A DNA stretch of 48,222 nucleotides from a bacterium (GCA_023135785.1 JAGLSL010000008.1:1-48222); one strand, 5' to 3'. Positions 1,313 through 46,261 are shown, counted from the first letter of the stretch. Numbers and translations: made by a program. Notes: generated from the sequence alone by a model not told the origin.

Positions 1313-2700
1313 AAAGAAGACCCGTAAAAGAAAGAATAAAAGATTTTGGGGAAGTTGCTCTCGGTTTTAGCAAAGAAGAAGCAATAGCCGAAGCAAAAAG
1401 ATGTCTGCAATGCAAAAAACCTCTTTGTATTAAAGGATGTCCCGTTCAGATAAATATTCCTAAATTCATAAAAGAAATTGCCGAAGAAAAATTCAGTGAT
1501 GCGATTAAAACATTAAAAGAAACTAACAGTCTGCCTGGAATATGCGGGAGAGTATGTCCGCAGGAAACTCAATGCGAAATGTTTTGTGTCTTGGGCAAAA
1601 AAGGAAAACCAATAGATATCGGCTCACTTGAAAGATTTGCATCGGACGAGGGAAAGAACGAGGGACGAGGGACGAGGGACGAAGGACGCAATAAATTCCT
1701 CAATCCGCAATCCTCAATCCGCAATGGTATTAAGACAACGGTCGTTGGTTCGGGACCTGCGGGACTTACTTGCGCGGGGGAACTTGCAAAAATGGGTTAT
1801 GAAGTAACAATATTTGAAAGTCTGCACAAGGCAGGCGGTGTATTAAGATACGGCATACCAGAATTTAGAATGCCCCGCGATGTTTTAGACAGTGAAATAC
1901 AATATGTAAAAGATTTGGGGGTAAAAATAGAGTGCGATGTTTTAATAGGAAAAACATTTTCCATAGACGAACTTTTTCAGGAAGGATATAAAGCAATATT
2001 CATCGCAAGCGGCGCAGGCTATCCGCAATTTTTGAATATAGAAGGAGAGAATGCAAACGGAGTTTATTCGGCAAACGAATTTCTTACCAGAGCGAACCTG
2101 ATGAAAGCATATGATAAACAATATCACACCCCTATAAAAGTCGGCAAAAAAGTAGGCGTGATAGGCGGAGGCAATGTCGCAATGGATGCGGCAAGAGTGG
2201 CTCTTAGATTAGGAGCGGATAATGTCTATTTAGTTTATCGCCGAACTGAAAAAGAAATGCCTGCAAGAGAAGAAGAAAGGGAGAACGCCAAAGAAGAAGG
2301 AGTAATTTTTAAAATCCTCACTCAACCCGTCAAAATAAAAACAGACGACAAGGGATGGGTGAAAGAACTTGAGTGTTTGCAAATGAAACTTGGCAAGCCG
2401 GATGATTCCGGAAGAAGAAGACCCCTTCCGATTAAAGATTCCAATTTTTCTATTCCTTTAGATACTATTGTTATCGCAATAGGACAAAATCCAAACCCCC
2501 TTATCCCCTCATCCACTCCGAACTTAAAAACAGGCAAAAAGGGAACAATAGAAGCAAATGAAGTCGGAGCAACATCCATCGAAGGAGTATTCGCAGGCGG
2601 CGATATAGTAACAGGCGCCGCAACGGTCATAGAAGCAATGGGCGCAGGAAGAAAAACGGCAAAGGCAATGGATGAGTATATACGCTCCGCTAAGACCTAA
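1309..2700 (+). CDS. nfnB: GltD-like NADPH oxidoreductase large subunit (NfnB / homotetrameric glutamate synthase type)
   Basis: 463 aa. N-terminal Fe-S Cys motifs (RCLQCKKPLCIKGCPV, CGRVCPQETQCE). Two dinucleotide folds (VVGSGPAGL, VIGGGNVAMD). C-terminal GGDIVTGAATVIEAMGAGR. Confidence 0.75.
   Translation: MKRRPVKERIKDFGEVALGFSKEEAIAEAKRCLQCKKPLCIKGCPVQINIPKFIKEIAEEKFSDAIKTLKETNSLPGICGRVCPQETQCEMFCVLGKKGKPIDIGSLERFASDEGKNEGRGTRDEGRNKFLNPQSSIRNGIKTTVVGSGPAGLTCAGELAKMGYEVTIFESLHKAGGVLRYGIPEFRMPRDVLDSEIQYVKDLGVKIECDVLIGKTFSIDELFQEGYKAIFIASGAGYPQFLNIEGENANGVYSANEFLTRANLMKAYDKQYHTPIKVGKKVGVIGGGNVAMDAARVALRLGADNVYLVYRRTEKEMPAREEERENAKEEGVIFKILTQPVKIKTDDKGWVKELECLQMKLGKPDDSGRRRPLPIKDSNFSIPLDTIVIAIGQNPNPLIPSSTPNLKTGKKGTIEANEVGATSIEGVFAGGDIVTGAATVIEAMGAGRKTAKAMDEYIRSAKT
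1658..1725 (+). repeat. in-frame microsatellite block inside nfnB: heptamer ACGAGGG x4 (1658-1685), then a perfect 14-mer CCTCAATCCGCAAT x2 (1698-1725)
   Basis: Read directly from the sequence. Encodes the low-complexity linker NEGRGTRDEGRNKFLNPQSSIRN just before the first GxGxxG fold. Confidence 0.85.
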
Positions 2701-2766
2701 GACTATAGACATTAGACCTTTGACTTTAGACTAAAAAACCACAGACATTAGACTTTAGACTAAAAA
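2692..2766. repeat. TAGAC-word low-complexity arm (left arm flanking the RM gene)
   Basis: taagacctaagactatagacattagacctttgactttagactaaaaaaccacagacattagactttagactaaaaa. The 13-nt tagactttagact (2749-2761) is the exact reverse complement of 5702-5714. The nfnB stop codon lies inside the arm. Confidence 0.8.
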
Positions 2767-2832
2767 CTCCCAACCTCTTATCAATTTACAATCCCTTTTT
2801 GTGATTTTTCTCATTGTGTTTCGTCTTATTAT

Positions 2833-5517
2833 TTATTTTATAATAACCCCATACTCAGACAATCTCTTATAAGCTTCTTTTAATTTTTTCTTAACCGTTT
2901 CAATGACTTCATATTTATTTGCTATTTCTTTTTGCTTGGCTAAATCAAATTTTCCAGTAGATGTTATGGGTATCTTTATATTTTTTACATCTTCTTCTAT
3001 GTGAGTTTTCTTTAATCTTTTGTTTCCTTGCCCCTGTATAAAATCTGGAAGATGGTTATTCAAAAGGTACAACAAATATTTATAGTCCAACTCTTTTTTG
3101 TGTTCTTCTTTAATTAAAAGCAATCCAGAATGACAAGTCATATTAAACTTACCCTTTCTATAAAAAACCATACCAGGATAAGAGCCATCTATAGACCAAG
3201 TTAAACCTTCAGCATCCCAATCATAATGATCTATTTTTCCTATCTCTCCATTATTTAGTGTTTGTGCAGAATAAACCGGATATTCACCTTGATGGTTGTT
3301 GATATACTCTTTGGTGTATTTTGCCTTGCCTAATTCTATATCAAATAATTCAGTGATCTTTTTATCTTTGAATTTTACCTTGCTGATTTCATCTTCGATT
3401 TTCTTAATCTTTTTTCTTGAAGAATTAATTTCTTTTTCTAAATCAGATAAAAACTCATTATAAGAACAAATGCCTAGTGTTTTCTTTTCTTCTTTTATTT
3501 TCAGATTAATAAGCTCTTTATCTTTCCAGAAATTCTCAATAATCCAGTATTTACTTTTATCAAAAACATTAAAATCTATTAGCTTGCATCTTGGATCATC
3601 AACTTTAAAAAAAGTTTTGCTTCCTTTAAATTGATTATAAAGATTCTTGGCTTGTTCTAAATCGTTATCTTCGATTTCAAACCTATCTGCGTCCAAGTTT
3701 TCCCCTATGCTCGAAACTAGATAACAAAAGATAGGGAAGTCCTGAATATCAACATTATTCTGTTTTTTCTCAACACATAAAATATAGGTTTTTTTATTTG
3801 TATTAAAAAAGGTTTTCATTGGTAAAGAAATTATAGCATTGATAAAACACTCTTTCTTAATTTCTTCCCTTAGTTTCTTATTAGCAAAATTATCCATAAT
3901 TCCATTAGGTATAACTACAAAAGCCCGCCCGTCTTTTCTTAAATTATTTAGTATCCATTTTAAAGCAAGCCCCTCAACACCAACACCTGAACACTTATAT
4001 TCTGATTCTAAACCTTCTTCTTTTATTTCGTTTCTTAAACTTCTTGAACCTTTTTTTACATAGGGTGGATTAGAAAGGATAAGGTCAGGTTTATCTCTTT
4101 CCTGTTTGAATTTTACTTTTAAAGTCCCCAGATTACTTTCGGAAAGTAGCTTGAATGTTCCATTAAAATATTCAGCATAATTCTTGGTTAAATTAGGTGC
4201 TTTTTGTACAATATCTGATAAATATATTAACATATTAGCTTTGGCCAATATTATAGTTCTATGTTCATCGTCGTCACTACCTTTATCATAACCAAGAAAT
4301 TTAACCCTCTTTGATGAGAAATTCGATCGAAACTGGCTCTTGAGTTTGGGATAAGTTTGTAAAGGCTCTAAAATAAAACCACCTACACCACAAAAAGGAT
4401 CACATATAAACTCTGCTGAATTTACATCGGCCATTTCTATAATAGCCCGCACAACTTTTCTAGGAGTAAAAAATTGCCCCAAACGGCTCTTGTCTTGGCT
4501 TTGCTTTAAAAAAGTCTCAAATAACTTTGTCTTAAATTCTTTCTTTATATTTCTTAGGGACTGGAATTCTGCGTATTTCTGTAACGAACTCTTGAATAGG
4601 TTGGCTTGACTGTAAACTGGCTTTCCTTTACCGTCAACAAAGATTGTTCCGTTTATTATTGTAGTCCCATCGTCTGCAATGGGAAACAGTTTTATTATCT
4701 CTACCCTTGAATTTCTTGCGTAAAACTCCAAAACCTCTTTGCTTGTTTTTTTATTTTTATACATATCCATCAAACTTTGAAAGTCATATGGAGTTTTTAG
4801 GACGTTGAGATCGCTTAAAAACTTAAAAATAAACAATTCGACAACATTATACAGACATTTTGTAGGATCTTTTCCTGTATTGACGTAAATATCCTGCCAA
4901 ACACTTTTAGCTAGATTTAATGGGTCAACTTCTTTTGTTTTCCTGAAAGTAGAGTTTTGTTCAGATATTTGATCTAATATCTTTTGAATTAAATCATAAG
5001 TCTCTTTAGTTGTTTCTTCTAATTTTTCATAGTTTAGCTGTTTTTGCTCCTTAATGAAAAAATTCGTCTGAACTTTTTGCTTATCTTCACTTAAAATAAA
5101 AGAATAACTCCTTTTTTCGTCTGTAGTTCTGTCTCTGTAATCATTCTTTGCATCATCTTGTCTTGGATTAATCCAGTAGGTTACAATTCCATCTGTAATA
5201 ACCCCAATACTTGCATCAAGTAGCTGGCACACATCATTACATTGTTCTATTGATTCTTTCTTTTGTTTGTCTGTTTGAAAGCCACTAGGTTTCTTCCACT
5301 CTATCACAAGTAAAACTTTTGGCTTTTTTTTGTCTCTCCTATCAACAAGAAGTCCGTCAGCCTTCCTCTTTTCATATTTACCATAGCTTCTTTTCTCAAT
5401 TATTCCACTATCCTTATATTGTTTTACTGTTGTGGAATGTAGAGGGAAGAACTCATAATCAACTATCAAAATACCCTTTTTGTCCAGCTCCCTTGAGATT
5501 TGTTCTTCACTAGCCAC
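2833..5517 (-). CDS. single-chain Type IIG restriction-modification enzyme (PD-ExK nuclease + gamma-class N6-adenine methyltransferase + HsdS-like target recognition domain)
   Basis: 894 aa. N-terminal ADGLLVD...VLLVIEWKKP fits D...ExK. FFTPRKVV and DPFCGVGGF form the AdoMet motif, and LILSNPPYVKKG is catalytic motif IV. A coiled-coil linker is followed by a C-terminal ~190 aa (ELGKAKYTKEY...EYPVYSAQTLNNGEIG...WSIDGSYPGMVFY) that resembles one Type I S-subunit TRD. The gene is visibly more AT-rich than its neighbours. Confidence 0.8.
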   Translation of the reverse strand: MASEEQISRELDKKGILIVDYEFFPLHSTTVKQYKDSGIIEKRSYGKYEKRKADGLLVDRRDKKKPKVLLVIEWKKPSGFQTDKQKKESIEQCNDVCQLLDASIGVITDGIVTYWINPRQDDAKNDYRDRTTDEKRSYSFILSEDKQKVQTNFFIKEQKQLNYEKLEETTKETYDLIQKILDQISEQNSTFRKTKEVDPLNLAKSVWQDIYVNTGKDPTKCLYNVVELFIFKFLSDLNVLKTPYDFQSLMDMYKNKKTSKEVLEFYARNSRVEIIKLFPIADDGTTIINGTIFVDGKGKPVYSQANLFKSSLQKYAEFQSLRNIKKEFKTKLFETFLKQSQDKSRLGQFFTPRKVVRAIIEMADVNSAEFICDPFCGVGGFILEPLQTYPKLKSQFRSNFSSKRVKFLGYDKGSDDDEHRTIILAKANMLIYLSDIVQKAPNLTKNYAEYFNGTFKLLSESNLGTLKVKFKQERDKPDLILSNPPYVKKGSRSLRNEIKEEGLESEYKCSGVGVEGLALKWILNNLRKDGRAFVVIPNGIMDNFANKKLREEIKKECFINAIISLPMKTFFNTNKKTYILCVEKKQNNVDIQDFPIFCYLVSSIGENLDADRFEIEDNDLEQAKNLYNQFKGSKTFFKVDDPRCKLIDFNVFDKSKYWIIENFWKDKELINLKIKEEKKTLGICSYNEFLSDLEKEINSSRKKIKKIEDEISKVKFKDKKITELFDIELGKAKYTKEYINNHQGEYPVYSAQTLNNGEIGKIDHYDWDAEGLTWSIDGSYPGMVFYRKGKFNMTCHSGLLLIKEEHKKELDYKYLLYLLNNHLPDFIQGQGNKRLKKTHIEEDVKNIKIPITSTGKFDLAKQKEIANKYEVIETVKKKLKEAYKRLSEYGVIIK

Positions 5518-5630
5518 TTTTTCCCCTTTGTTTATCTCATATATTATATAAACTCAAAGATAAAAAACAAGCATTATAAATTACATATTAGAATTCAAAT
5601 TCATTTAGAGAATTACAAATCAACTTATAA

Positions 5631-5801
5631 TACTTGCTAACTGCTAATTGCTAATTTTAACTTGTCTTTAGTCTTTTGTCTATTATCTGTTTTCTGTTTT
5701 CAGTCTAAAGTCTATAGTCTATGGTCTTTAGTCTAAGGTTTAATGTCTTTTTTCTTTGTTTTATTACTTGCTAATTGATAATTGATAGTTGCTAATTTTA
5801 A
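5631..5801. repeat. GCTAA-word direct repeats (5631-5660 and 5764-5801) bracketing the GTCTA-word arm (5663-5747)
   Basis: tacttgctaactgctaattgctaattttaa and ttacttgctaattgataattgatagttgctaattttaa have the same orientation. Between them lies gtctttagtc...cagtctaaagtctatagtctatggtctttagtctaagg. Confidence 0.8.
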
Positions 5802-5865
5802 ATTGTCTATAATCCCATCTTTTTCCTTTTCTCTCCTTCTGTTATATAATAAATCCTTAAAATAT

Positions 5866-5951
5866 GCGGACGTGGCGGAATTGGTATACGCGTATGGCTT
5901 AGGACCATATCCCTTCGTGGGTTGAGAGTTCAAGTCTCTCCGTCCGCACCA
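5866..5951 (+). tRNA. tRNA-Leu (anticodon TAG), CCA encoded
   Basis: Manual cloverleaf. Acceptor GCGGACG/CGTCCGC. Anticodon stem TATGG/CCATA with loop CTTAGGA. Long variable arm. T-arm GAGAG-TTCAAGT-CTCTC. Discriminator A followed by CCA. Confidence 0.9.
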
Positions 5952-5962
5952 CAATTAGGGAT

Positions 5963-5991
5963 TTGACAGTTTAGGATTTATGGTTTATAGT
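5963..5991 (+). promoter_or_regulatory. sigma-70-type promoter candidate for tRNA-Gly (TTGACA-N17-TATAGT)
   Basis: TTGACA at 5963-5968, a 17-nt spacer, TATAGT at 5986-5991, about 55 nt upstream of the tRNA-Gly 5' end. Confidence 0.4.
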
Positions 5992-6048: not shown

Positions 6049-6120
6049 GCGGGTGTAGCTCAGTGGTAGAGCGTCACGTTGCCAACGTGAGGGTCACGAG
6101 TCCGAATCTCGTCGCCCGCT
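6049..6120 (+). tRNA. tRNA-Gly (anticodon GCC), no encoded CCA, unusual T-loop TCCGAAT
   Basis: Manual cloverleaf. Acceptor GCGGGTG/CGCCCGC (one G-U pair). D-arm GCTC-AGTGGTA-GAGC. Anticodon arm TCACG-TTGCCAA-CGTGA. T-arm ACGAG-TCCGAAT-CTCGT. Confidence 0.85.
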
Positions 6121-6121
6121 C

Positions 6122-6155
6122 TAATAACAACACTGATATATCAGTGTTGTTATTA
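6122..6155. repeat. perfect 34-bp palindrome directly after tRNA-Gly
   Basis: taataacaacactgata|tatcagtgttgttatta is perfectly self-complementary. It could be a processing or termination hairpin, but there is no U-tract. Confidence 0.8.
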
Positions 6156-6404
6156 CCCCGAGAGTATCGGGAAAATGTCTGTTGGAGATTTTTTCGATGG
6201 TTTACGATACGGGGTTTGCAGTGGGATATCTGCGTGATAATCACCCCGAGAGTATCGGAAAATTTCCACGAGGAAATTTCTGTAAAAATGTCTGTTGGAG
6301 ATTTTTTCGATGGTTTACGATACGGGGTTTGCAGTGGGATATCTGTGTGAAAATTACCCCGCAGAGTATCCCGAAGGTTTTCGGGATGGCTTACGATACG
6401 GGGT
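6155..6404 (+). repeat. tandem array of three ACCCCG(C)AGAGTATCG...TTACGATACGGGGT palindromic units (6155-6215, 6243-6328, 6356-6404)
   Basis: The arms are conserved and the interiors differ in length (61, 86 and 49 bp). The inter-unit spacer TTGCAGTGGGATATCTG(C/T)GTGA is also repeated. Unit 2 is nearly identical to the unit at 10340-10426. Confidence 0.85.
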
Positions 6405-6415
6405 TTATATGGTAT

Positions 6416-6456: not shown

Positions 6457-6467
6457 ATGGATATGCA

Positions 6468-6556
6468 ATAGAAATACGGTAGAAATACAGTGGAAATACG
6501 TAGTATAAAAACAATATATTTCGAAATATTTCTATGTATTTCAATTTATTTCTGTC
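6468..6556. repeat. GAAATA/TATTTC word hairpin upstream of tig
   Basis: Left arm aatagaaatacggtagaaatacagtggaaatacg. Right arm tatttcgaaatatttctatgtatttcaatttatttct. The 20-mer atgtatttc(a/g)atttatttct is shared with 44584-44603. Confidence 0.8.
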
Positions 6557-6572
6557 CAATAAGGAAGAATAT

Positions 6573-9673: not shown

Positions 9674-9798
9674 TTCTAACGCATAGAAATGCGTTAGAAT
9701 TACCCCGCAGAGTATCGAAAAAATATCGAAGACCCAGGGTATTATTAACAATGGGGCGAGAGATTTTTTTGATGTTTTACGATACGGGGTTTCGTTGA
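9672..9798 (+). repeat. 127-bp direct repeat, copy A (30-bp palindrome AATTCTAACGCAtagaaaTGCGTTAGAATT plus an ACCCCG...CGGGGT unit at 9702-9790)
   Basis: Base-for-base identical to 10193-10319. Begins inside the zapA stop codon. Confidence 0.9.
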
Positions 9799-9818
9799 AA
9801 TAGAAATACGTTCCGTTT

Positions 9819-10000: not shown

Positions 10001-10007
10001 AAGTCAA

Positions 10008-10187
10008 GGCTCTGGGATATACGTGATGGAATAAATGGAATCTTGAGCCAAATAGTTAAAAAGGGAATTCTACTTTGGGTAAAGCGTGTACGTCCCGATG
10101 TAATGTCGGGAAAACACAAACTATTCAAGGGAATACCCACTTTGTAAAGCAGCTTTAAGATTCCTGTCCCACACGGTATCTTGGGGC
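10008..10187 (+). ncRNA. ssrS: candidate 6S RNA
   Basis: 180 nt starting 7-8 nt after a near-consensus promoter. The 5' end GCUCUGGGAUAUACGUG pairs with the 3' end CACACGGUAUCUUGGGGC, followed by UUUUU. A second helix forms between GGAAUCUU and AAGAUUCC. The centre is largely unpaired, and the apical hairpin is GUGU-acg-UCCCGAuguaaugUCGGGA-aa-ACAC. UGAGCC on the 5' side and UUCAAGGG on the 3' side resemble elements I recall in E. coli 6S RNA. Location downstream of zapA matches the E. coli zapA-ssrS arrangement. Confidence 0.55.
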
Positions 10188-10192
10188 TTTTT

Positions 10193-10319
10193 AATTCTAA
10201 CGCATAGAAATGCGTTAGAATTACCCCGCAGAGTATCGAAAAAATATCGAAGACCCAGGGTATTATTAACAATGGGGCGAGAGATTTTTTTGATGTTTTA
10301 CGATACGGGGTTTCGTTGA
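10193..10319 (+). repeat. 127-bp direct repeat, copy B
   Basis: Identical to 9672-9798. Followed at 10321-10339 by half of the TGCGTTAGAATT palindrome and then another unit. Confidence 0.9.
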
Positions 10320-10339
10320 TATAGAAATGCGTTAGAATT

Positions 10340-10426
10340 ACCCCGCAGAGTATCGGAAAATTTCCACGAGGAAATTTCTGTAAAAATGTCTGTTGGAGAT
10401 TTTTTCGATAGTTTACGATACGGGGT
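10340..10426 (+). repeat. ACCCCGCAGAGTATCGG...TTTACGATACGGGGT unit (near-copy of 6243-6328)
   Basis: Same interior as unit 2 of the array after tRNA-Gly, including the hairpin GAAATTTCCacgaGGAAATTTC, with 1-2 differences. Confidence 0.85.
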
Positions 10427-10536
10427 GATTAAATTCTTCATTCCTTTAAATACAATTTCAAAAATCAAATTATAAAGTGTAGAATAGTACGCTTACTAAT
10501 GAGAGCACTTTATACTTAACATTTCATACGTGAGCT

Positions 10537-11789: not shown

Positions 11790-12614
11790 TCAGAAAGACT
11801 GAATTTTCTTCCTGATTTTCTTAATCATCCAAGGCGGAGTAGATGCTCCTGCGGTTATTCCGACTTTTTGAAAATTTTTAAACCATTCTTTCTTAAGTTC
11901 AGATTCGTCTTCAACCTGACAAGCGCGTTTCTTATTTTTTATACATAGTTCCAGCAACTGTCGTGTATTGGCGCTATTATGTCCGCCTATTATTATCATT
12001 ATATCCACATCCTTTAAAAGTTTTAGCGTAGATGTTTGTCTTTTTCTGGTGGCGTCACAGATAGTATTTATTACCTTGATCTCTTTGGAGCATTTTGATG
12101 CTTTTAAAACAACCTGTTGAAAAATATTCTCACTCATTGTGGTTTGAGCTACTACTCCGCAGGAACCAATAGATTTGTTTTGTAATTCTGATTTATCTTT
12201 TACCACAATCACATTACCCTGCAAGAACGGTAATATACCTCTAATTTCAGGATGTTTCTTGTCCCCGACTATTATTAATTGTTCACACATCTTGCTAAGT
12301 TTGATAGCTTCATCCCGGGCTTTTTTTACGAAAGGACAAGTCGCATCAATAATTTTTTTTACTCTCGGTTTTATTTTCTTAAGCACTTCAGGAGAAATGC
12401 CATGTGAAGGAATAATTACTATTTCATTATCTATTTTTTCAAAATTCTCTATGACTACAATGCCTTTGTTTTCCATTTTTCGGACCATAGGAGGATTATG
12501 TATTAAAGCGCCCAGTGTGTAAACCTGTCCATTTTTAGCCGCATCTAAAGCTATTTTTACGGCTCTTTTTACACCGAAACAGAAGCCTGCATTCTTAGCA
12601 ACAATTATTTTCAT
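11790..12614 (-). CDS. ispH: 4-hydroxy-3-methylbut-2-enyl diphosphate reductase
   Basis: 274 aa. MKIIVAKNAGFCFGVKRAV, ATCPFV and the third Cys context TICDAT, then IIIGG.NS.NT. Confidence 0.9.
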   Translation of the reverse strand: MKIIVAKNAGFCFGVKRAVKIALDAAKNGQVYTLGALIHNPPMVRKMENKGIVVIENFEKIDNEIVIIPSHGISPEVLKKIKPRVKKIIDATCPFVKKARDEAIKLSKMCEQLIIVGDKKHPEIRGILPFLQGNVIVVKDKSELQNKSIGSCGVVAQTTMSENIFQQVVLKASKCSKEIKVINTICDATRKRQTSTLKLLKDVDIMIIIGGHNSANTRQLLELCIKNKKRACQVEDESELKKEWFKNFQKVGITAGASTPPWMIKKIRKKIQSF

Positions 12615-12627
12615 TTTATTAACTGAC

Positions 12628-12720
12628 TGTCATTGCGAGCCCAAACATAGTGAAGGCGTGGCAATCTAAAAATGAGATTGCTTCGTCGTCCCGCTTTCAG
12701 CGGAGCTTCTCGCAATGACA
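12628..12720. repeat. TGTCATTGCGAG...CTCGCAATGACA palindromic element
   Basis: 12-bp perfect terminal inverted repeats. Internal hairpins GCAATCTaaaaatgAGATTGC and CCGCTttcAGCGG. Confidence 0.8.
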
Positions 12721-12724
12721 AGCA

Positions 12725-13150
12725 TTAAGTGTTACTTTCATTTTTATTCTTTAAGATTCTCGAAATGGAAGGTAATGTATCTTTGTTTATCTGATTTAAT
12801 TTTTTCTCGTATACAAACAATGCATAGAAAGTTAAAACAAAAGTGATGCCCCCTGCTATGGCAGAGACAATTTCACTGCGGCTTATGCCCCATAGGATTA
12901 AATATCCGATTAAAAAAGTCATTATCGGTAAAATAAAAACAAGGAAACTCAATTTGGAAATCATACCCTCGGAAATAAATATTTCCACTTCGTTTCCAAT
13001 TTTGGCTCCAATATCATTGTCAGCAGTTAGCGTCCTTTGCCCTTCATCATCAAGCATACAAATTCTACATTTATCGCAATGTTCAGAAGCGCTTAAAAGC
13101 ACAACTGCCCTATTTTCTTCTATCTTTATAACTTTCCCTATTTCAATCAT
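12725..13150 (-). CDS. RseC/MucC-family (SoxR-reducing system) membrane protein
   Basis: 141 aa. N-terminal beta domain with CDKCRIC, followed by two TM helices, which is the typical RseC layout. Confidence 0.6.
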   Translation of the reverse strand: MIEIGKVIKIEENRAVVLLSASEHCDKCRICMLDDEGQRTLTADNDIGAKIGNEVEIFISEGMISKLSFLVFILPIMTFLIGYLILWGISRSEIVSAIAGGITFVLTFYALFVYEKKLNQINKDTLPSISRILKNKNESNT

Positions 13151-17523: not shown

Positions 17524-18533
17524 AAAAAGTATTGATATTGTTTTGTTTTTTAATGTTATCTTCCGTATTATTGGCTAGTGAAGTTTTCCACATCGAGCAA
17601 TCCACAATTATAAAAGAGGACTTGGTTCTCATAGGCAAATCCTGCGTGATAGATGGAACCGTTAGAGGAGATGCCGTTATTATTAACGGAAACTTAGAAC
17701 TTAACGGAACGGTTGAGGGAGATGCCGTCGTTCTCGGCGGAGAAGCAATAGTCAACGGACAAAGCCACGTAAAAGGAGATTTGGTTATTGTAGGAGGAAA
17801 CCTTATAAAAGCAGAAGGTGCTTTTGTAGACGGCGAGGTCGTAATAATCTCCCTGGGACCCTTAAAAAATCTGTTTAAACTTATACCCTCGGTCGTGCAA
17901 TTCTCAACGGAAAACGGCAAAATCACAATTGAAGGAGACAGTATAATAAAGCCCTTCGGACAAGGGACAAGACAGACGCATACACGACATACATTTGGAT
18001 GGAAACCCAGCCCAATTTTGCCCTCTTGGATATTACTCGTAAAAGGGATTGCTCTATCAATGTTTATAATGATTTTCACTGCTATTTTCTCATCCGGGTC
18101 AGAAACAATGGCGCTTTATTTAGAGAAAAAACCGAGGCAAGCTTTCTTTGCCGGATTTTTAGCGCAGATTTTATTTGTTCCTGCGATTATCGTTCTTGTT
18201 TTTAGCATAATCGGAATTTTATTTATTCCTTTCTTAATGCTCGCTTATCCTATAGCATTGCTTGTAGCTCTTGTGCCTTGTTCGCTTTTTATAGGCAAAA
18301 AAATCGTTAAAGAATCCGCTTTTTTTAATGAAAAGAGATCTCTAATATCATTGATAGGACTTCTCATCCTTTTTATTATGCTTTTCCTGGGGCAACTGCT
18401 TCAAATAGGAAGCTCCGCATTAAATATTATTGGAGGAAGTATTTGCTTTTTAACACTTTTTGCATTTTATCTCTATTTTACTTTCGGGCTGGGCTGTCTT
18501 ATATTATCAAGAGTAGGCACGAGAAAACCCTGA
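17520..18533 (+). CDS. membrane protein with N-terminal bactofilin-like (polymer-forming, beta-helical) repeat domain
   Basis: 337 aa. Signal/anchor sequence, then G(D/T)V.GD.V...G.L...G repeats, then about 5 TM helices. ATGA overlap with the upstream gene. Confidence 0.6.
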   Translation: MKKVLILFCFLMLSSVLLASEVFHIEQSTIIKEDLVLIGKSCVIDGTVRGDAVIINGNLELNGTVEGDAVVLGGEAIVNGQSHVKGDLVIVGGNLIKAEGAFVDGEVVIISLGPLKNLFKLIPSVVQFSTENGKITIEGDSIIKPFGQGTRQTHTRHTFGWKPSPILPSWILLVKGIALSMFIMIFTAIFSSGSETMALYLEKKPRQAFFAGFLAQILFVPAIIVLVFSIIGILFIPFLMLAYPIALLVALVPCSLFIGKKIVKESAFFNEKRSLISLIGLLILFIMLFLGQLLQIGSSALNIIGGSICFLTLFAFYLYFTFGLGCLILSRVGTRKP

Positions 18534-19800: not shown

Positions 19801-19880
19801 ACACTTGTAAAAAAGGAACTATTTCACTTATTTTTTATAATAAATATTATATATTATTCCTAAGTATAGAGTGTTTGTCA

Positions 19881-20006
19881 ACCCCGTTAGAGATTAAAGA
19901 GAAAAAAATATAATTCATCTCAATAATTAGGAGACAAAAAGAGAATGTATGTAAATATTAAACTGTGATTTACGGTAGCCTTATGGCTACCTATCTCTAA
20001 CGGGGT
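19881..20006. repeat. ACCCCGTTAGAGAT...ATCTCTAACGGGGT element (126 bp, perfect 14-bp terminal inverted repeats)
   Basis: Arms at 19881-19894 and 19993-20006. A-rich interior ends with the hairpin GGTAGCCttatGGCTACC just before the right arm. Confidence 0.85.
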
Positions 20007-21863: not shown

Positions 21864-22685
21864 ATGAATAATTTTGGGTTGGAATTTTTAAAGGTGTCCG
21901 GAACTGGTAACGACTTCATCATAGTTATAAATGTAGAAAATAAATATAACTATGAATGGTCCAGTCTGGCAAAAAATCTATGCAGGCGTCACCTATCTAT
22001 AGGAGCAGATGGGCTTATCGTATTGGAAACTTCTCTCAAAGCAAATGCCAGAATGAGAATATTTAATTCTGACGGGAGCGAAGCAGAGATGTGCGGTAAT
22101 GCAGCGCGCTGTTCTGCGCGGGTTCTTGTGCATAAAAAACTAACTATCCCAGGTGAAGTTAGTCTGGAAACACTCTCCGGAATTATCACGGCACAGGTAA
22201 AAGAGGATACAGTGAAAATAAAAATGACACCACCACATAGTTTCAAGGAAGAGATACATATAAAAATTGATGGCACGGATTATATCGGAAGTTTTATTAA
22301 TACAGGCGTCCCTCATGCTGTTTTTTTAACTGACGACATAAATAAAATAGACTTACTTGAGATTGCGCCTAAAATCAGAAATAATGAACAGTTTCAGCCG
22401 GAAGGAACAAATGTCAACTTTGTGCAAATCCTAGATAATAATTCAATGTCCATCCGCACATATGAAAGAGGAGTGGAAGACGAAACCTATGCATGCGGCA
22501 CAGGCGCCGTTGCTTCAAGTATCGTAAATTTTATAAAAGGCAACTTAAAAACAAACCTTATAAAAGTGCAAACAAAAGGCGGAGAATTAACTGTTTCCAT
22601 AGAAGGGACACCCGATAAAATAGAAAATATTTACCTTGCCAGTCCCGTTGAAATAATTTATTCAGCAAAAATTTCACCCCGTTAG
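21864..22685 (+). CDS. dapF: diaminopimelate epimerase
   Basis: 273 aa. SGTGNDFIIV and both catalytic Cys contexts (MCGNAARC, ACGTGAVAS). The last 3 codons and the stop lie in a repeat arm. Confidence 0.9.
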   Translation: MNNFGLEFLKVSGTGNDFIIVINVENKYNYEWSSLAKNLCRRHLSIGADGLIVLETSLKANARMRIFNSDGSEAEMCGNAARCSARVLVHKKLTIPGEVSLETLSGIITAQVKEDTVKIKMTPPHSFKEEIHIKIDGTDYIGSFINTGVPHAVFLTDDINKIDLLEIAPKIRNNEQFQPEGTNVNFVQILDNNSMSIRTYERGVEDETYACGTGAVASSIVNFIKGNLKTNLIKVQTKGGELTVSIEGTPDKIENIYLASPVEIIYSAKISPR

Positions 22686-22803
22686 AGATTAATTTAATAG
22701 AAAAAGTTTAGGCTTTACCAAAGTTTTAAAGCTAAAAACAGGGAAAGAAAACCTTGGGAGTATGACAGAAATGTCAAAAGACATTTCTTATCTCTAACGG
22801 GGT
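22676..22803. repeat. ACCCCGTTAGAGAT...ATCTCTAACGGGGT element (128 bp)
   Basis: Arms at 22676-22689 and 22790-22803 are identical to those of the 19881 element. The interior is unrelated but has the same layout, with the hairpin AGAAATGTCaaaaGACATTTCT before the right arm. The left arm supplies the dapF stop codon. Confidence 0.85.
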
Positions 22804-40058: not shown

Positions 40059-41155
40059 AGGCGAAACTTGCTCTTGAAGACGGGACGGTATGGGAAGGAT
40101 TAAATTTCGGCGCAAAAGGTGAAAGCTATGGTGAAATAGTTTTCAATACCAGCATGGCCGGCTATCAGGAAATACTTACCGACCCTTCCTACAAGGGTCA
40201 GATTGTTGCCATGACTTATCCCCTCATCGGAAATTACGGAATAAACAGCGAAGATGTGGAATCTATAAAACCCTTCTTAGAAGGTTTCGTAGTAAAAGAA
40301 TGCAGTCAAATCTCCAGTAGTTGGCGTTCAGAAAAAAGTCTGGATGAATACCTTAAAGAAAATAATATTATAGGCATAGAAGGCATAGATACGCGCGCTC
40401 TTACAAAACATATTAGATTGCAGGGAGCAATGAAAGCGGTAATCTCTACAAAAGATTTAGATAACAACTCATTAATCAAAAAAGCAAAAGCATCCGAGGG
40501 ATTGATAGGCAAAGATTTGGTCAAAGAGGTCACCTGTAAAAAAATACAAACTTGGAACGAGAGAGGTAAACACAAAGTTGTCGTATTGGATTGCGGGGTA
40601 AAATTCAATATCTTAAGAGAACTATCCAATAACAACTGTAAAGTGATTTTCCTGCCGGCTAAAACCGATGCAAAAACCATATTGGGTTTGAAACCTGACG
40701 GGCTACTACTCTCAAACGGCCCGGGCGACCCGGAAGGTGTTGCCTATGTTGTGGAAACCGTAAAAAAATTATTAGACAAGTTACCAATTTTCGGCATATG
40801 TTTCGGGCAACAAATGTTGGGGTTGGCTCTGGGCGGAAAAACATATAAATTAAAATTCGGACATCATGGAGCAAACCATCCCGTCAAAGATTTAAAAACA
40901 GGCAAAATTTACATAACCGCGCAGAATCACGGATTCTGTGTCGATATAAATTCTTTAAACAAAGAAGACATCGAAATTACACACGTAAACTTAAACGATA
41001 ATACTTTAGAGGGAATAAGACACAAAAAATTGCCCGTTTTTTCCGTGCAATTTCATCCTGAGGCAGGACCCGGTCCAAACGACGCAAAATACCTGTTCGG
41101 GGAATTTGTAGAGATGATGGATAAAGACAGAAGACAGAAAACAGACGACAGATGA
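40055..41155 (+). CDS. carA: carbamoyl-phosphate synthase small (glutaminase) subunit
   Basis: 366 aa. FGICFGQQ catalytic Cys and FSVQFHPEA. The last ~10 codons and the stop lie in the GACAGA word repeat. Confidence 0.95.
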   Translation: MKAKLALEDGTVWEGLNFGAKGESYGEIVFNTSMAGYQEILTDPSYKGQIVAMTYPLIGNYGINSEDVESIKPFLEGFVVKECSQISSSWRSEKSLDEYLKENNIIGIEGIDTRALTKHIRLQGAMKAVISTKDLDNNSLIKKAKASEGLIGKDLVKEVTCKKIQTWNERGKHKVVVLDCGVKFNILRELSNNNCKVIFLPAKTDAKTILGLKPDGLLLSNGPGDPEGVAYVVETVKKLLDKLPIFGICFGQQMLGLALGGKTYKLKFGHHGANHPVKDLKTGKIYITAQNHGFCVDINSLNKEDIEITHVNLNDNTLEGIRHKKLPVFSVQFHPEAGPGPNDAKYLFGEFVEMMDKDRRQKTDDR

Positions 41156-41222
41156 CAGAAAAGACAATAGGATTAATAATTTTTTAATTTCTGAGTTCTG
41201 TTTTCTGATATCTGACTTCTGA
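41126..41222. repeat. GACAGA/TCTGT word hairpin spanning the carA stop and the carA-carB spacer
   Basis: Left arm gacagaagacagaaaacagacgacagatgacagaaaagaca. Right arm tttctgagttctgttttctgatatctgacttctga is imperfectly complementary to it. Confidence 0.8.
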
Positions 41223-41229
41223 AAAAATT

Positions 41230-42951
41230 ATGCCTAAAAGAACGGATATAAAAAAGATATTAATAATCGGCGCAGGTCCTATCGTAATCGGACAGGCATG
41301 CGAATTTGATTATTCGGGAACACAGGCATGTAAAGTTCTCAAAGCCGAAGGATTTCATGTTATCCTGCTAAACAGCAATCCTGCAACGATTATGACAGAT
41401 CCGATAACAGCTGATAAAACATACATCGAGCCAATTACTCCCGAAATAGTTCAAAGAATTATTGAAAAAGAAAAACCCGACGCTATTCTGCCCACACTCG
41501 GCGGACAAACTGCGCTAAATGTTACCGTACAAGTTGCAGAAATGGGAATATTTGATAAATACAATGTGGAAGTCATAGGCGCAAATATACAAGCTATCAA
41601 AAAAGCCGAAAACAGAGAACTATTCAAAAAGGCAATGCATAAAATAGGGCTGGATTTACCCAGAAGCGACAAAGCGCACAGCTTAAAAGAAGCCTTAGAG
41701 GTGGTCGAAGAAATCGGAATTCCCGTAATTATAAGACCAAGTTTCACATTGGGAGGAACAGGCGGAGCAGTCGCATACAATATAGAAGAATTCAAACGAT
41801 TAGCTAAGACAGGTCTTGAATCGAGCATGATTAGCCAAATATTAATTGAAGAATCCGTCATCGGATGGAAAGAATTCGAATTGGAAGTTATGCGAGACGT
41901 AAAAGACAATGTTGTTATTATATGTTCTATAGAAAATTTTGACCCTATGGGGGTTCATACAGGTGATTCAATTACGGTTGCTCCCATACAAACTTTAACA
42001 GACAAAGAATATCAAAACATGCGTGATGCCTCAATTGCATGCATCAGAGAAATAGGTGTAGAAACAGGCGGTTCCAATGTTCAATTTGCGGTTAATCCGG
42101 ATAACGGACGAATGGTAGTTATTGAAATGAATCCCCGTGTATCAAGAAGTTCCGCATTGGCCTCCAAAGCAACAGGATTTCCCATTGCAAAAATAGCCGC
42201 AAAACTTGCCATAGGATATACGCTGGATGAAATTCCCAATGACATCACAAAAGAAACTCCCGCGTGTTTTGAACCAACAATCGATTATTGCGTAGTTAAG
42301 ATACCACGATTTACTTTCGAAAAATTCTCCGAAGCGAACGCTACTCTAACCGTATCCATGAAATCCGTAGGCGAGGCAATGGCAATCGGACGAACATTCA
42401 AAGAAGCGTTGCAAAAAGGATTAAGGTCTTTGGAAATAGGAGTAGACGGTCTTATGGATTTAAAATTTCAAGTTAGCGAAATTCAACTTTTCGAAAAGTT
42501 AAGAACTCCAAACGCCGAGAGAATTTTTTATATAAAATACGCATTAAAGAACGGTATGAATATAGACGATATTTATAAACATACTCAAATTGACAGATGG
42601 TTTTTACATAACATCCAAGAAATTGTAGAATTGGAAAAACAAATAACAGATTCCAGACAACAGATTTCAGACAACAGAAATCAGAAAATTAAAAATAAAA
42701 AACAAAAAGATATGTCATCTGATGTCCGTCCTCTGTCTTCTGATTTGTTATTGAAAGCTAAACAATTCGGGTTCAGCGACAAACAACTTGCAAGGATGCT
42801 AAAAACAGAGGAAGAAATTATTAGAAATTTACGTAATAAATTAAATATTAAAGCTGTATATAAATTGGTCGATACCTGCGGTGCAGAATTTGAAGCTTAC
42901 ACACCATATTACTATTCTACCTATGAAAAAGAAAACGAAAGCTGTAATTAA
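41230..42951 (+). CDS. carB: carbamoyl-phosphate synthase large subunit, N-terminal half only (first ATP-grasp plus oligomerisation domain)
   Basis: 573 aa. [30 protein letters not shown], then the ATP-grasp domain, ending at [27 protein letters not shown]. From memory this is where the second synthetase half of the ~1070-aa enzyme begins. Confidence 0.85.
42641..42752 (+). repeat. imperfect CAGA/TCTG word palindrome, in frame within carB
   Basis: aaataacagattccagacaacagatttcagacaacagaaatcagaa...tcatctgatgtccgtcctctgtcttctgatttgttatt. The ends AATAACA/TGTTATT are complementary. Encodes [34 protein letters not shown]. Confidence 0.75.
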
Positions 42952-44485: not shown

Positions 44486-44492
44486 CAAACTA

Positions 44493-44606
44493 CAGAAAAT
44501 AGAAATACGGTAGATATACGATAGAAATATGGTAGAAATATATAACAAGATGCAGGTAGGCAATTTATTTCCATTATATTTCAATGTATTTCGATTTATT
44601 TCTTTC
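44493..44606. repeat. GAAATA/TATTTC word hairpin upstream of hisH
   Basis: Left arm acagaaaatagaaatacggtagatatacgatagaaatatggtagaaatat. Right arm aatttatttccattatatttcaatgtatttcgatttatttct. Homologous to 6468-6556. Confidence 0.8.
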
Positions 44607-44634
44607 TTATTTTATCGAACGAAGTGAGGTAAAT

Positions 44635-45261
44635 ATGATAGCAATAATTGACTACGGGATGGGAAATTTAAGAAGTGTTAGCAAAGCTCTGGAATCTGTC
44701 GGCGCAAAAACTATAGTCACAAATAAACCCGAAGACATAAAATCCGCCGATGCAGTAATCCTGCCAGGAGTTGGCGCATTTTACAGAGGCATGGAAAATC
44801 TAAAGGATAAAAAACTTTTGCCCGTTATATCCGAAGCTGTAAAAAGCAAAAAGCCCTTTTTGGGCATTTGCTTAGGATTACAACTCTTATTCACAGAAAG
44901 CGAAGAACACGGTATATCCAAAGGATTGGGGCTAATAAAAGGACGCGTTAAAAAATTCTCCTCCGGCTTAAAAATTCCACATATGGGATGGAACCAAATA
45001 AGACTAAAGACCGAAGACCAAAGACCAAAGACCATAAACTTATTTAAAGATATACCGGATGAAAGTTATTTTTACTTCGTGCATTCTTATTACGTAGAGC
45101 CTGAAGACAAAAACACTATTATTGCTACTACCAATTATGGCGAAAATTTTGTTTCGGCAATAAATAAAGATAATATATGGGGTGTCCAATTTCACCCCGA
45201 AAAAAGCTCGGATTTGGGATTAAAAATTTTAAAAAATTTCGTTGAATCAATAAAAAAATAA
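44635..45261 (+). CDS. hisH: imidazole glycerol phosphate synthase, glutaminase subunit
   Basis: 208 aa from MIAIIDYGMGNLRS. GICLGLQ catalytic Cys, HMGWN and QFHPEKS. The ORF-track start at 44584 lies in a repeat arm. Confidence 0.95.
   Translation: MIAIIDYGMGNLRSVSKALESVGAKTIVTNKPEDIKSADAVILPGVGAFYRGMENLKDKKLLPVISEAVKSKKPFLGICLGLQLLFTESEEHGISKGLGLIKGRVKKFSSGLKIPHMGWNQIRLKTEDQRPKTINLFKDIPDESYFYFVHSYYVEPEDKNTIIATTNYGENFVSAINKDNIWGVQFHPEKSSDLGLKILKNFVESIKK
45001..45035 (+). repeat. heptamer AGACC(A/G)A x4-5, in frame within hisH
   Basis: agactaa agaccga agaccaa agaccaa agaccat encodes LKTEDQRPKT, in a loop about 6 aa longer than I recall for E. coli HisH. Confidence 0.8.
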
Positions 45262-45267
45262 TGTTAG

Positions 45268-45291
45268 CCCCGTTAGAAATATTTTAACGGG
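45268..45291. repeat. minimal CCCCGTTAGAAAT...TTAACGGG hairpin (arms of the ACCCCGTTAGAGAT family without an interior)
   Basis: CCCGTTA/TAACGGG stem in the hisH-hisF spacer. The right arm runs into the hisF RBS GGGAGG. Confidence 0.55.
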
Positions 45292-45306: not shown

Positions 45307-46110
45307 ATGGAAAAAGAAACTAAATTTCTAACAGGGTTAGCAAAAAGAATAATACCCTGCTTAGACGTAAAAGGCGGACGTGTTGTAAAAGGCATTAAGT
45401 TCCGTGAACACCGTGACGCCGGCGATCCTGTAGAACTTGCCTTTTTTTATAATAAAGAGGGTGCTGATGAGCTGGTATTCTACGACATTACAGCATCCAG
45501 TGATGAGCGTTCCATAATGCTTGATGTGGTTCGGCGAACAGCTAACCAGCTTTTTATACCCCTTACCGTAGGTGGCGGTCTGCGTACTGTGGATGACATG
45601 AACCAAATGCTGAAAGCCGGAGCGGACAAAATATCTATTAATACCGCAGCAGTAATGAACCCCAAATTGATATCAGAGGGCGCGCAACGCTTCGGCAGTC
45701 AATGCATAGTGCTTGGAATGGATGCCAAGCGTATCCCCGATTCAAATCCAGTTCGCTGGATTATTCACACTCATACAGGCGCGGACGGAGGACATTCCGC
45801 AGGTCTGGATGCAATAGACTGGGCAAAACAGGCAGTGGAACTGGGAGCGGGCGAGATTGTGGTAAACAGTATTGATGCCGATGGCACTAAAAAGGGATAT
45901 GACCTGGAGTTGCTACGCGCTATTTCAGAAAATGTTTCAGTCCCTGTAGTTGCCAGCGGCGGAGCAGGTAATTTAGACCATCTTGCCGAAGCCCTGACTA
46001 AAGGCAAAGCCGATGCAGTCCTCGCCGCTTCAATCTTTCATTATGGCGAATATTCAATTAAAGAAGCAAAAGAATATCTTAAAAAGAAGGGAATTCTTGT
46101 AAGAATATAA
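45307..46110 (+). CDS. hisF: imidazole glycerol phosphate synthase, cyclase subunit
   Basis: 267 aa. [26 protein letters not shown] and ASGGAG...ASIFH. Confidence 0.95.
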
Positions 46111-46242
46111 TAGTAACCAGTAACCTGTGTACTGTAACCAGAAAAATATGAAAGAAAATTTCCAGTTCGATTTTGAAAAGTTGAGTGTATATCTATGTAG
46201 ATTTTTAACTGTGAACTGTAAACTGGTTACTGTTAACTAACC
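46111..46242. repeat. GTAAC/GTTAC word hairpin between hisF and purF
   Basis: Left arm tagtaaccagtaacctgtgtactgtaaccag. Right arm taactgtgaactgtaaactggttactgttaactaacc. Confidence 0.8.
46148..46240 (+). pseudogene. 30-codon ORF, possibly the N-terminal remnant of a four-helix-bundle (23S rRNA IVS-type) protein gene
   Basis: MKENFQFDFEKLSVYLCRFLTVNCKLVTVN*. The first 15 aa resemble the F.FE.L.VY(Q/K) N-terminus I recall for TIGR02436-type proteins. The remainder is read-through of the right repeat arm. Confidence 0.3.
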
Positions 46243-46261
46243 GAGCATAAGCGAGGTAAAC

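Follow-up and report, generated by a model that had tools for sequence, protein, structure and literature searches.

The gltD–tRNA-Leu locus and its restriction-modification gene

The locus described here lies in a 48,222-nt stretch of DNA (GCA_023135785.1, JAGLSL010000008.1:1-48222; hereafter the window), a chromosomal segment of an uncultured Omnitrophota bacterium. Between a gltD-like gene and a pair of tRNA genes the window carries a single restriction-modification (RM) gene, which is enclosed by two inverted arrays of 7-nt words (heptamers) that are halves of one hairpin element. The proteins of the window are identical on the metagenome-assembled genome GCA_030639545.1 and on ENA and Logan assemblies from the same sample set. 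The nearest genome is 'Candidatus Omnitrophota bacterium Modern_marine.mb.319', and the NCBI name of the trigger-factor cluster is likewise Omnitrophota. Exact-protein look-ups of GltD and of the RM protein returned the same population only, and the RM gene was present every time.

The left conserved flank is a gene for a gltD-like NADPH oxidoreductase of the small-subunit type (1309-2700, + strand; Pfam Fer4_20 and Pyr_redox_2), the last three codons of which are already part of a heptamer array. This array, the left arm (2690-2768, +), consists of about 11 imperfect heptamers of NNTAGAC type in a single orientation and has a period of 7 in Tandem Repeats Finder (TRF). It is followed by the 3' flank of the RM gene (2769-2832), by the 894-aa RM open reading frame (ORF; 2833-5517, − strand) and by an AT-rich region 5' of that gene (5518-5630), its probable promoter and leader, as judged solely by consensus promoter-like matches nearby on the − strand. 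An ORF scan between the arms finds just 2833-5517, in agreement with a preliminary description of this DNA in which only the 894-aa gene and its flanks were placed there. Next come an inner TTGCTAA heptamer array (5631-5660, +; TRF period 7), the right arm of GTCTANN heptamers (5661-5752, +), which was delimited by repeat search, alignment and folding, and an outer TTGATAA/TTGCTAA array (5764-5814, +; repeat search and TRF). The inner and outer arrays are direct repeats that bracket the right arm (5631-5673 and 5772-5814, 43 nt, 81%), as had been claimed for words of GCTAA type. The right conserved flank starts with a region that contains TATAAT (5815-5865, +), where the alignment to the relative L006 resumes and which has the same sequence in L174. 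It leads into tRNA-Leu(tag) (5866-5951, +; Rfam RF00005), the anchor of the slot in all relatives, and tRNA-Gly(gcc) (6049-6121, +), for both of which ARAGORN and Rfam agree with the earlier assignment.

The RM protein has an N6-adenine methyltransferase domain (PF02384 N6_Mtase, residues 332-639, E 1.6e-30) and, in the same chain, a target-recognition domain (PF01420 Methylase_S, residues 714-877, E 2.2e-14). All 33 homologues compared (47-75% identity) retain motif I, DPFCGVGGF (373-381), the NPPY motif (483-486) and an N-terminal D54...E73-x-K75 triad without change. No nuclease domain of Pfam was found in the protein, and the putative N-terminal nuclease is assigned from the conserved triad. 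An AlphaFold2 model reached a predicted local distance difference test score of 84.9, with an alpha/beta N-terminal domain at about 88-94. Foldseek aligned the full chain of the model with BpuSI (3s1s, E 7e-15) and DrdV (7lo5), at low global TM-scores (0.31). By its architecture, the protein is consistent with the Type IIG fusion of restriction, modification and specificity parts that it had been taken for. Like BpuSI (PDB 3s1s), the predicted enzyme is a single chain of ~890 aa in which a gamma-class N6-adenine methyltransferase and one target-recognition domain follow a putative PD-(D/E)xK-like domain at the N-terminus, and its predicted structure aligns with that of BpuSI over the full length. 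It differs from the solved Type IIG enzymes in having just 11-20% sequence identity to them, and in that its methyltransferase and recognition domains are closest to Type I HsdM and HsdS.

The GC content of the RM gene is 31.2%, against a mean of 37.2% for the other genes (sd 3.5), a gap of only ~1.7 sd. Its family is widespread (more than 3400 matches, with named members that include Planctomycetota and Saccharimonadales), and the top match is just 75% identical. The low GC content and the spread of the family are consistent with horizontal acquisition of the gene. A plasmid search with the RM protein gave distant matches only, at 36% identity or less.

Inverted arms of the host genome

The arms had been placed at 2692-2766 and 5663-5747 with an exact 13-nt inverted match, and we find them at, or within a few bases of, these positions. 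The match pairs TAGACTTTAGACT (2749-2761) with its exact reverse complement AGTCTAAAGTCTA (5702-5714). Two ungapped inverted repeats run through the arms (2695-2737 with 5697-5739, 43 nt, 81%; 2734-2767 with 5696-5729, 34 nt, 85%). A gapped local alignment yields one colinear run of 70 columns with 54 matches, in which 5696-5752 of the right arm pairs with 2697-2768, and 5661-5695 is made up of extra units on the loop side. The alignment takes in the irregular stretch AAAAAACCACAGAC. Therefore, the arms are mirror copies of one specific sequence and not just arrays of the same words.

Chance, or the low complexity expected of AT-rich DNA, is excluded as the source of this similarity. None of 500 dinucleotide shuffles reaches the inverted score of the arms, 34 (shuffle mean 11.0, sd 1.5; highest shuffle 19; z = 15). 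This score is also the highest among 276 pairs of intergenic regions in the window, where the runner-up scores 20 and the 95th percentile is 15. Furthermore, a density of at least three TAGAC or GTCTA words per 100 nt is reached at these two sites only in the 48 kb. Together these results establish the arms as colinear inverted copies.

Folding of the arms joined by a 4-nt linker predicts a duplex of ~55 bp. Its free energy is -58.1 kcal/mol (z -10.6) for the + strand and -64.8 kcal/mol (z -13.1) for the − strand, whereas the local hairpins of this genome reach just -22 to -35 kcal/mol. A duplex so stable on both strands (-58 and -65 kcal/mol) would suit arms that are kept for RNA pairing, as a long-range stem around the cargo transcript that acts as an RNase III-type processing or insulating stalk, comparable to the stems on either side of rRNAs and of rRNA intervening sequences. 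Two observations taken up below would fit such a stem as well: the ancestral hairpin of the relative L182 sits in a tRNA-operon spacer, and proteins of PF05635, the 'rRNA intervening sequence' family, are encoded inside word hairpins. However, G·U wobble is not favoured among the arm mismatches (3 are compatible with it on each strand, versus 8 transversions), and the RM gene runs antisense to gltD and the tRNAs. Its best promoter-like site, weak evidence in itself, falls in the right arm, so that the mRNA would miss most of the 5' arm. We regard a role in RNA pairing as distinctly improbable.

The closest RM homologues (P0002, P0003 and P0008, 70-75% identity) lie in unrelated gene contexts. 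Of the three closest contexts that could be retrieved (L166, L168 and L169), one is the surroundings of a glycosyltransferase gene, one a contig that resembles an archaeal virus or a plasmid and carries Cdc6 and MazE, and one the neighbourhood of an ABC transporter. Nothing comparable to the TAGAC word-arm pair is present in the flanking stretches read there, and on this ground arms that travel with the RM gene were rejected. Heptamer arrays are a hallmark of the lineage: in ~170 kb from the window and its relatives there are 49 arrays of period 7, two of period 11 and none of periods 5, 6, 8, 9 or 10. They fill spacers, overlap the last codons of gltD and carA, and occupy the inter-domain linker of GltD. 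Because the closest RM homologues lack the arms in the flanks read and heptamer arrays are typical of the lineage, the arms belong to the host locus and genome and not to the RM gene.

Beside the RM homologue on L168, an inverted pair GTTTTTAGTCT / AGACTAAAAAC (1880-1985) adjoins a gene for a DDE transposase and is possibly the end of an insertion sequence (IS). This pair holds the 12-mer TAGACTAAAAAC, which is also the end of the left arm in the window, a match that we regard as probably coincidental.

A variable slot bounded by hairpin halves

The closest relatives keep the order gltD, tRNA-Leu, tRNA-Gly, tig, clpP. The trigger factors of the window, L006 and L174 share 96.6-98.8% identity, and the GltD orthologues of L006, L007 and L008 are 79-87% identical, with a C-terminal tail that differs in each. 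Homology between the window and L006 stops at about 2768 on the left, as it does for L007 and L008, and restarts at about 5815 on the right. Where the window has the 894-aa RM gene on the − strand, L006 and six further contigs of its species carry a 267-aa gene without a known domain on the + strand, L007 carries a homologue of that gene, L174 an unrelated 523-aa gene on the + strand, and L008 and L087 a gene for a HEAT-repeat protein, followed by a Panacea toxin-antitoxin pair, with its SocA/Panacea antitoxin gene, and more. There are four cargo sets in five lineages between the conserved gltD and tRNA-Leu/tRNA-Gly/tig, and no mobility genes among them. A metagenome scan with GltD added only two short close relatives, L086 and L087, the latter from the L008 species. 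The cargo (the RM gene, the 267-aa gene of L006, the 523-aa gene of L174, two genes of L008 and an L184 gene described below) has a GC content of 29-36%, versus 36-39% for the loci. No or marginal matches were obtained for the 267-aa, 523-aa and 300-aa cargo proteins in Pfam and PHROGs, for the 267-aa protein in NCBIfam and PADLOC, for the 300-aa protein in PADLOC, and for the 140-aa cargo protein in PHROGs; the latter has no precomputed Pfam match.

In L006 and L174 the cargo is also bracketed by an inverted pair (z 4.7 and 8.0, above all shuffles). In this pair CTAGATA words face TATCTAG words, which differ from the words of the window. The left modules of the two are identical over 50 nt up to CAAAGAAAAA, and the right modules have TTTTTCAACGA in common. 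The 267-aa and 523-aa proteins are mutually unrelated; therefore, two unrelated genes occupy the same junctions. In L008, a remnant of the right module is retained after the first cargo gene. Between gltD and tRNA-Leu, this Omnitrophota clade has a single-gene slot of variable content, with the halves of a split hairpin as its boundaries. Word-arm pairs that enclose genes are thus found outside the window, in L006 and L174 and around two genes of another type, on L002 and L184, that are described below.

Intact hairpins that match the split ones exist for both word families. On L182, whose trigger factor is 80% identical to that of the window, an intact local hairpin lies between tRNA-Lys and tRNA-Leu, directly 5' of the latter (2297-2395; -35.1 kcal/mol, z -5.3). 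It agrees with the arms of the window at 26/33 positions on the left and 35/45 on the right (z 8.3 each). On L008, an intact hairpin of the CTAGAT family is present at a different locus, the ligA–lepB spacer (5675-5775), and its arms match the left and right modules of L006 at 31/40 (z 9.3) and 33/38 (z 14.7) positions. From these intact hairpins it follows that each arm pair represents the two halves of one discrete element. L183 has yet another word hairpin 5' of tRNA-Leu. Relatives without the RM gene keep arms, as the intact hairpin of L182 or, in L006 and L174, as the halves of another family around other genes.

A compensatory word switch between TAGAC/GTCTA (window, L182) and TAGAT/ATCTA (L006, L174) is suggestive but was not accepted as covariation. 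The heptamers differ at 3 of 7 positions, the right arms of L182 and of L006/L174 compare at z ~0, and we treat them as two families.

The RM gene lies on the strand opposite to the cargo of L006, L174 and L008, and inverted repeats are the substrate of inversion switches, which raises the idea that the arms flip the enclosed gene to turn RM on and off. We hold this to be very unlikely, since the gene is oriented as in the window in the three other assemblies of the locus (L001, L002 and L003), the arms match perfectly over no more than 13 nt, which is short for homologous recombination, no invertase lies nearby and the promoter appears to be inside the segment.

Conserved flanks, differing cargo and the lack of a mobility gene would also be expected if the hairpin were a bystander in a tRNA-adjacent hot spot of the minimal mobile element (MME) type, a concept of Saunders & Snyder 2002 as it is cited in PMC1538595. 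Cargo would then be exchanged by homologous recombination in the gltD and tRNA/tig flanks after DNA uptake, and, with word hairpins in most spacers, any intergenic insertion would be likely to hit one. In contrast to this expectation, the cargo of two independent families lies between complete colinear halves, and not inside an arm or beside the hairpin, and the unrelated cargo genes of L006 and L174 sit at the same apex junctions. A mere bystander role for the hairpin is in our judgement improbable.

A second spacer, between hisF and purF, has occupied and collapsed alleles. L184 belongs to the species of L006, and its HisF is 98% identical to that of the window. Its hisF–purF spacer contains an intact 120-aa gene of PF05635/bAvd type, for an intervening-sequence protein (IVP), among modules of one word family. 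In the window, the spacer (46111-46261) holds only a hairpin of GTAACC/GGTTAC words (46111-46242; -31.9 kcal/mol, z -4.1), whose loop of ~70 nt contains a 30-codon stub ORF. The hairpin had been described as holding a gene remnant. The support for this is positional, as the relative has its intact 120-aa gene in the same spacer, but the 30-aa stub (46147-46240) has no significant similarity to IVP proteins (best E 0.4). The hairpin looks like the collapse product of an occupied site and not like a vacant site. Additionally, about 9 kb upstream of the window start in the same genome, a PF05635 (23S rRNA intervening-sequence/bAvd-like) gene with an in-frame stop (L002, 1096-1464) is flanked by inverted CAAGATG/CAAGAAA arms, a weaker pair (z 3.9).

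The remaining local word hairpins of the window lie upstream of tig (6469-6553; 11-mer GAAATAC words, -24.2 kcal/mol, z -6.0), in the carA–carB spacer, which is filled by AAGACAG/TTCTG words that overlap the C-terminal codons of carA (41121-41222; -28.2 kcal/mol, z -4.4), and in the guaA–hisH spacer, where TRF detects 11- and 10-mer words of the same family as those upstream of tig (44499-44602). Folding bore out the hairpins that had been proposed at 41120-41225, 6465-6560 and 46105-46245 (z -4.1 to -6.0), whereas the fold at 44490-44610 is weak (z -2.6, with 3 of 200 shuffles as good). The families recur: a 20-nt string is common to 6468 and 44499-44518, and a 15-nt string to 6435 and 41148. 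At least six word families and at least eight different words, the latter mostly with inverted partners, are present in the window; two hairpin families have two copies each within the 48 kb, and the CTAGAT family occurs at two loci across the relatives. The carA–carB and guaA–hisH spacers of L184 (2900-2978 and 6235-6338) contain hairpins of similar size but with wholly different words from those of the window, and an array 3' of tRNA-Gly retains ACAGA-type words in the window, L006, L182 and L183. The hairpin families appear to be multi-copy and turn over fast.

In the window, hairpins extend through co-directional spacers as far as the next ATG, and no Shine-Dalgarno sequence can be recognised there (41121-41229 and 44486-44583). 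Heptamer arrays are also found in coding sequence. One forms the inter-domain linker of GltD (1644-1725), which differs in sequence and length in every relative, and others lie in the C-terminal tail of CarA (41121-41155), in the region of carB/guaA ORF overlap (42645-42708) and in HisH (45000-45034). The arrays seem to be generated at any site where the sequence is tolerant.

Multi-copy families that differ between close species resemble within-genome mobile populations, and this leads to the main alternative. The arms would be terminal inverted repeats of a non-autonomous arm-cargo-arm transposon that is moved in trans by a structure-specific transposase or by one of HUH type, such as the tyrosine transposases (RAYTs) associated with repetitive extragenic palindromes (REPs). 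The short 'empty' hairpins would then be internal-deletion derivatives, like miniature inverted-repeat transposable elements (MITEs) or REP doublets forming hairpins (REPINs), and the loop stub at 46111-46242, where a relative has a whole gene, shows the pattern of such a deletion. RAYT genes lie between inverted REPs (PMC3116915), and RM genes are flanked by inverted repeats above expectation, in some cases transposon-like (Furuta et al. 2010, PMC2853133). Several observations argue against movement in trans. No target-site duplication was seen outside the arms, the same arms hold different cargo at the same site with identical junctions in L006 and L174, and the closest RM homologues lack arms in the flanks read. 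Moreover, the L182 site, although unoccupied, has arms of both types, the six or more word families in 48 kb would call for many specificities or a purely structure-specific enzyme, and no transposase was found in the window. We consider a transposon moved in trans unlikely.

On balance, we lean towards the reading that the arms are halves of a REPIN-like host hairpin of ~100 nt, that a horizontally acquired RM gene sits at its apex, and that the site serves as an exchange slot. The centres of long palindromes are prone to breakage, and cleavage of hairpin tips by SbcCD-type nucleases is established in other bacteria. In the mechanism that we propose, the long quasi-palindrome would break at its centre, foreign DNA would be captured at the apex during repair of the break, and the separation of the arms would stabilise the palindrome. 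The cargo of an occupied slot could then be exchanged among relatives by homologous recombination in the arms and in the conserved gltD and tRNA flanks, and an internal deletion could rejoin the arms as an 'empty' hairpin. We infer that the hairpin apex directs insertion. The preliminary description had suggested that such hairpins are insertion or exchange sites for single-gene cassettes without a recombinase of their own. The comparative tests that could be run came out as this suggestion predicts, except that the 'empty' hairpin at 46111-46242 looks collapsed rather than vacant. As far as the window goes, the cassette is indeed recombinase-free: no recombinase or transposase domain was found in the Pfam-scanned ORFs of at least 100 aa, a few others being judged by precomputed Pfam labels only.

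Several observations weigh against an exchange slot at the hairpin apex. The nesting of the right arm between 43-nt direct repeats, and the additional units of ~35 nt that it contains, are not explained by a one-step insertion. On reading the sequence, no direct repeat or target-site duplication was found immediately outside 2690 and 5752, and neither junction microhomology nor a target duplication was found. A TAAGT-word module is inside the arms in L174 and outside them in L006, which points to further rearrangements, and the copies of arm modules around the IVP gene of L184 are in part direct and in part inverted. The left neighbours in L182 and L183 are tRNA-Lys and an M42 peptidase gene, and not gltD. 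The L182 site is therefore unoccupied only as seen from the tRNA-Leu side, and its match to the window could reflect a dispersed family and not strict orthology. Finally, the direction of change, insertion or deletion, is not readable from these data, which hold no sign of apex breakage or of SbcCD.

The movement of single defence genes that lack mobility genes is poorly understood; the known routes are homologous exchange through conserved flanks, as in MMEs, and hitch-hiking on transposons. In these Omnitrophota, cargo genes are located precisely at the apices of host hairpins, for two repeat families and two loci, and both intact and occupied alleles are available for study. Were genes in fact to enter at the apex, extragenic palindromes would act as structural hot spots for the build-up of accessory genes, beyond their roles as stabilisers of mRNA or as selfish repeats. 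Additionally, heptamer-word hairpins change between species with 98% protein identity and invade protein linkers and C-terminal tails.

Defence-type genes are present in variable regions of the relatives. These are the SocA/Panacea antitoxin gene in the L008 slot (12461-13030 and beyond) and, after hisF in L185 (7892-13877), AbiEii, HEPN/nucleotidyltransferase and Fic genes. A 19-nt string, TTAAAGGATGTCGATATAA, occurs in the 267-aa cargo gene of L006 and, inverted, in an opposite-strand lytB-like gene (11795-11813 and 17842-17860), and both copies encode LKDVDI. Paralogy of the two genes was rejected, as just this string is common to them and the proteins are otherwise unrelated.

Downstream of tRNA-Gly lie MITE-like repeats and two more word arrays, followed by tig, clpP, rplM and rpsI. 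A perfect 17-bp palindrome, TAATAACAACACTGATA / TATCAGTGTTGTTATTA, immediately follows tRNA-Gly (6122-6155) and is probably a terminator or processing hairpin of the tRNA pair. Upstream of tRNA-Gly, a near-consensus promoter (TTGACA, 17 nt, TATAGT; 5963-5991) lies within GGTTTAT-type heptamers. It is kept in L006, L174 and L183, and L006 has a small palindromic repeat inserted just ahead of it. The MITE-like family, with units of ~77-130 nt of the form CCCCGnAGAGTATCG ... CGATACGGGGT, has several copies in the window (6156-6410, 9698-9800, 10219-10430), flanks the gene for 6S RNA (10006-10191, Rfam RF00013, 95.6 bits) and occurs in L006 and L174 as well. A second small palindromic family with the ends ACCCCGTTAGAGAT / ATCTCTAACGGGGT is found in the window (19880-20006, 22676-22803, ~45266-45290), L006 (2022-2092) and L008 (797-1182).

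Comparison with known systems

Inverted repeats around RM genes have been described by Furuta et al. 2010 (PMC2853133). Their RM units, which include Type IIG systems, likewise lie between long imperfect inverted repeats and could be compared with empty-site genomes. Where their units look like transposons, the repeats occur solely with the insert, are missing from the empty site and come with 8-bp target duplications. In contrast, the repeats described here are present at the 'empty' site, belong to a repeat family of the host and show no target duplication. Compared with transposons and MITEs in general, the slot has the terminal inverted repeats but neither the target duplication nor a repeat-free empty site. 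It also differs from an integron cassette, which has one attC hairpin at its 3' end and an adjacent intI/attI; here arms are present on both sides, and no integrase was found in the window.

Palindromic hairpins can serve as landing sites. REPs are targets of IS1397, ISPpu9/10, ISPa11 and other ISs (Tobes & Pareja 2006, PMC1525189), where the palindromic hairpin is a specific landing site and the insert ends up flanked by the palindrome halves, as in the slot. An IS, however, brings its own transposase, whereas here RM or other genes without a transposase are found.

Tandem heptamers are known from the TAACTGA repeats of Beggiatoaceae (MacGregor 2015, PMC4679880), from Nostoc (bioRxiv 10.1101/2022.06.06.494920) and as the short tandemly repeated repetitive sequences of cyanobacteria. 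Similar to the arrays of the window, these are abundant intergenic 7-nt repeats that occasionally lie within ORFs and often reach start codons without a visible Shine-Dalgarno sequence. They consist of one or a few fixed words that are nearly always in direct repeat, unlike the arrays described here, whose many words differ from one close species to the next and each of which has an inverted counterpart nearby or farther away. In literature searches aimed at Omnitrophota or at such repeats, we found no description of heptamer-word hairpin families or of genes at their apices.

It is conceivable, though doubtful, that these hairpins form an undescribed, structure-defined class. In such a class, single genes that bring their own promoter, for example defence or bAvd-like genes, would land at the apex between heptamer-word arms. 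The dispersed hairpins would together capture and exchange genes in a manner analogous to integrons, by breakage at the palindrome centre with no recombinase of their own, or by means of a structure-specific enzyme in trans.

The MMEs of Neisseria (Saunders & Snyder 2002), as outlined where PMC1538595 and PMC3082526 cite them, are alike in that a fixed site between conserved genes holds varying single genes or small gene sets, often RM genes, with no mobility gene. In the same outline, exchange is presumed to proceed by homologous recombination in the flanks. The locus described here differs in that the cargo lies at a hairpin apex in two independent families. MMEs are defined by their conserved flanks and are not known to involve a split hairpin or inverted repeats.

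With regard to the repeats themselves, the closest likeness is to REPINs, non-autonomous hairpin elements that form within-genome populations (PMC3116915). Similar to REPINs, the hairpins are extragenic, ~100 nt long and composed of two inverted arms and a spacer, with several families per genome, of which two have two copies each in the 48 kb; they are sited between operon genes or at gene ends, and the families vary between related lineages. The predicted folds of the local hairpins here reach -22 to -35 kcal/mol (z -2.6 to -6.0), all in spacers. No RAYT gene is present among the Pfam-scanned ORFs of the 48-kb window. The hairpins differ from REPINs in that their arms are tandem arrays of 7-nt (sometimes 11-nt) words, with no motif common to all families in the sequence compared, and in that genes sit between the halves. 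The finding combines REPIN-like repeats with putative MME-like gene exchange.

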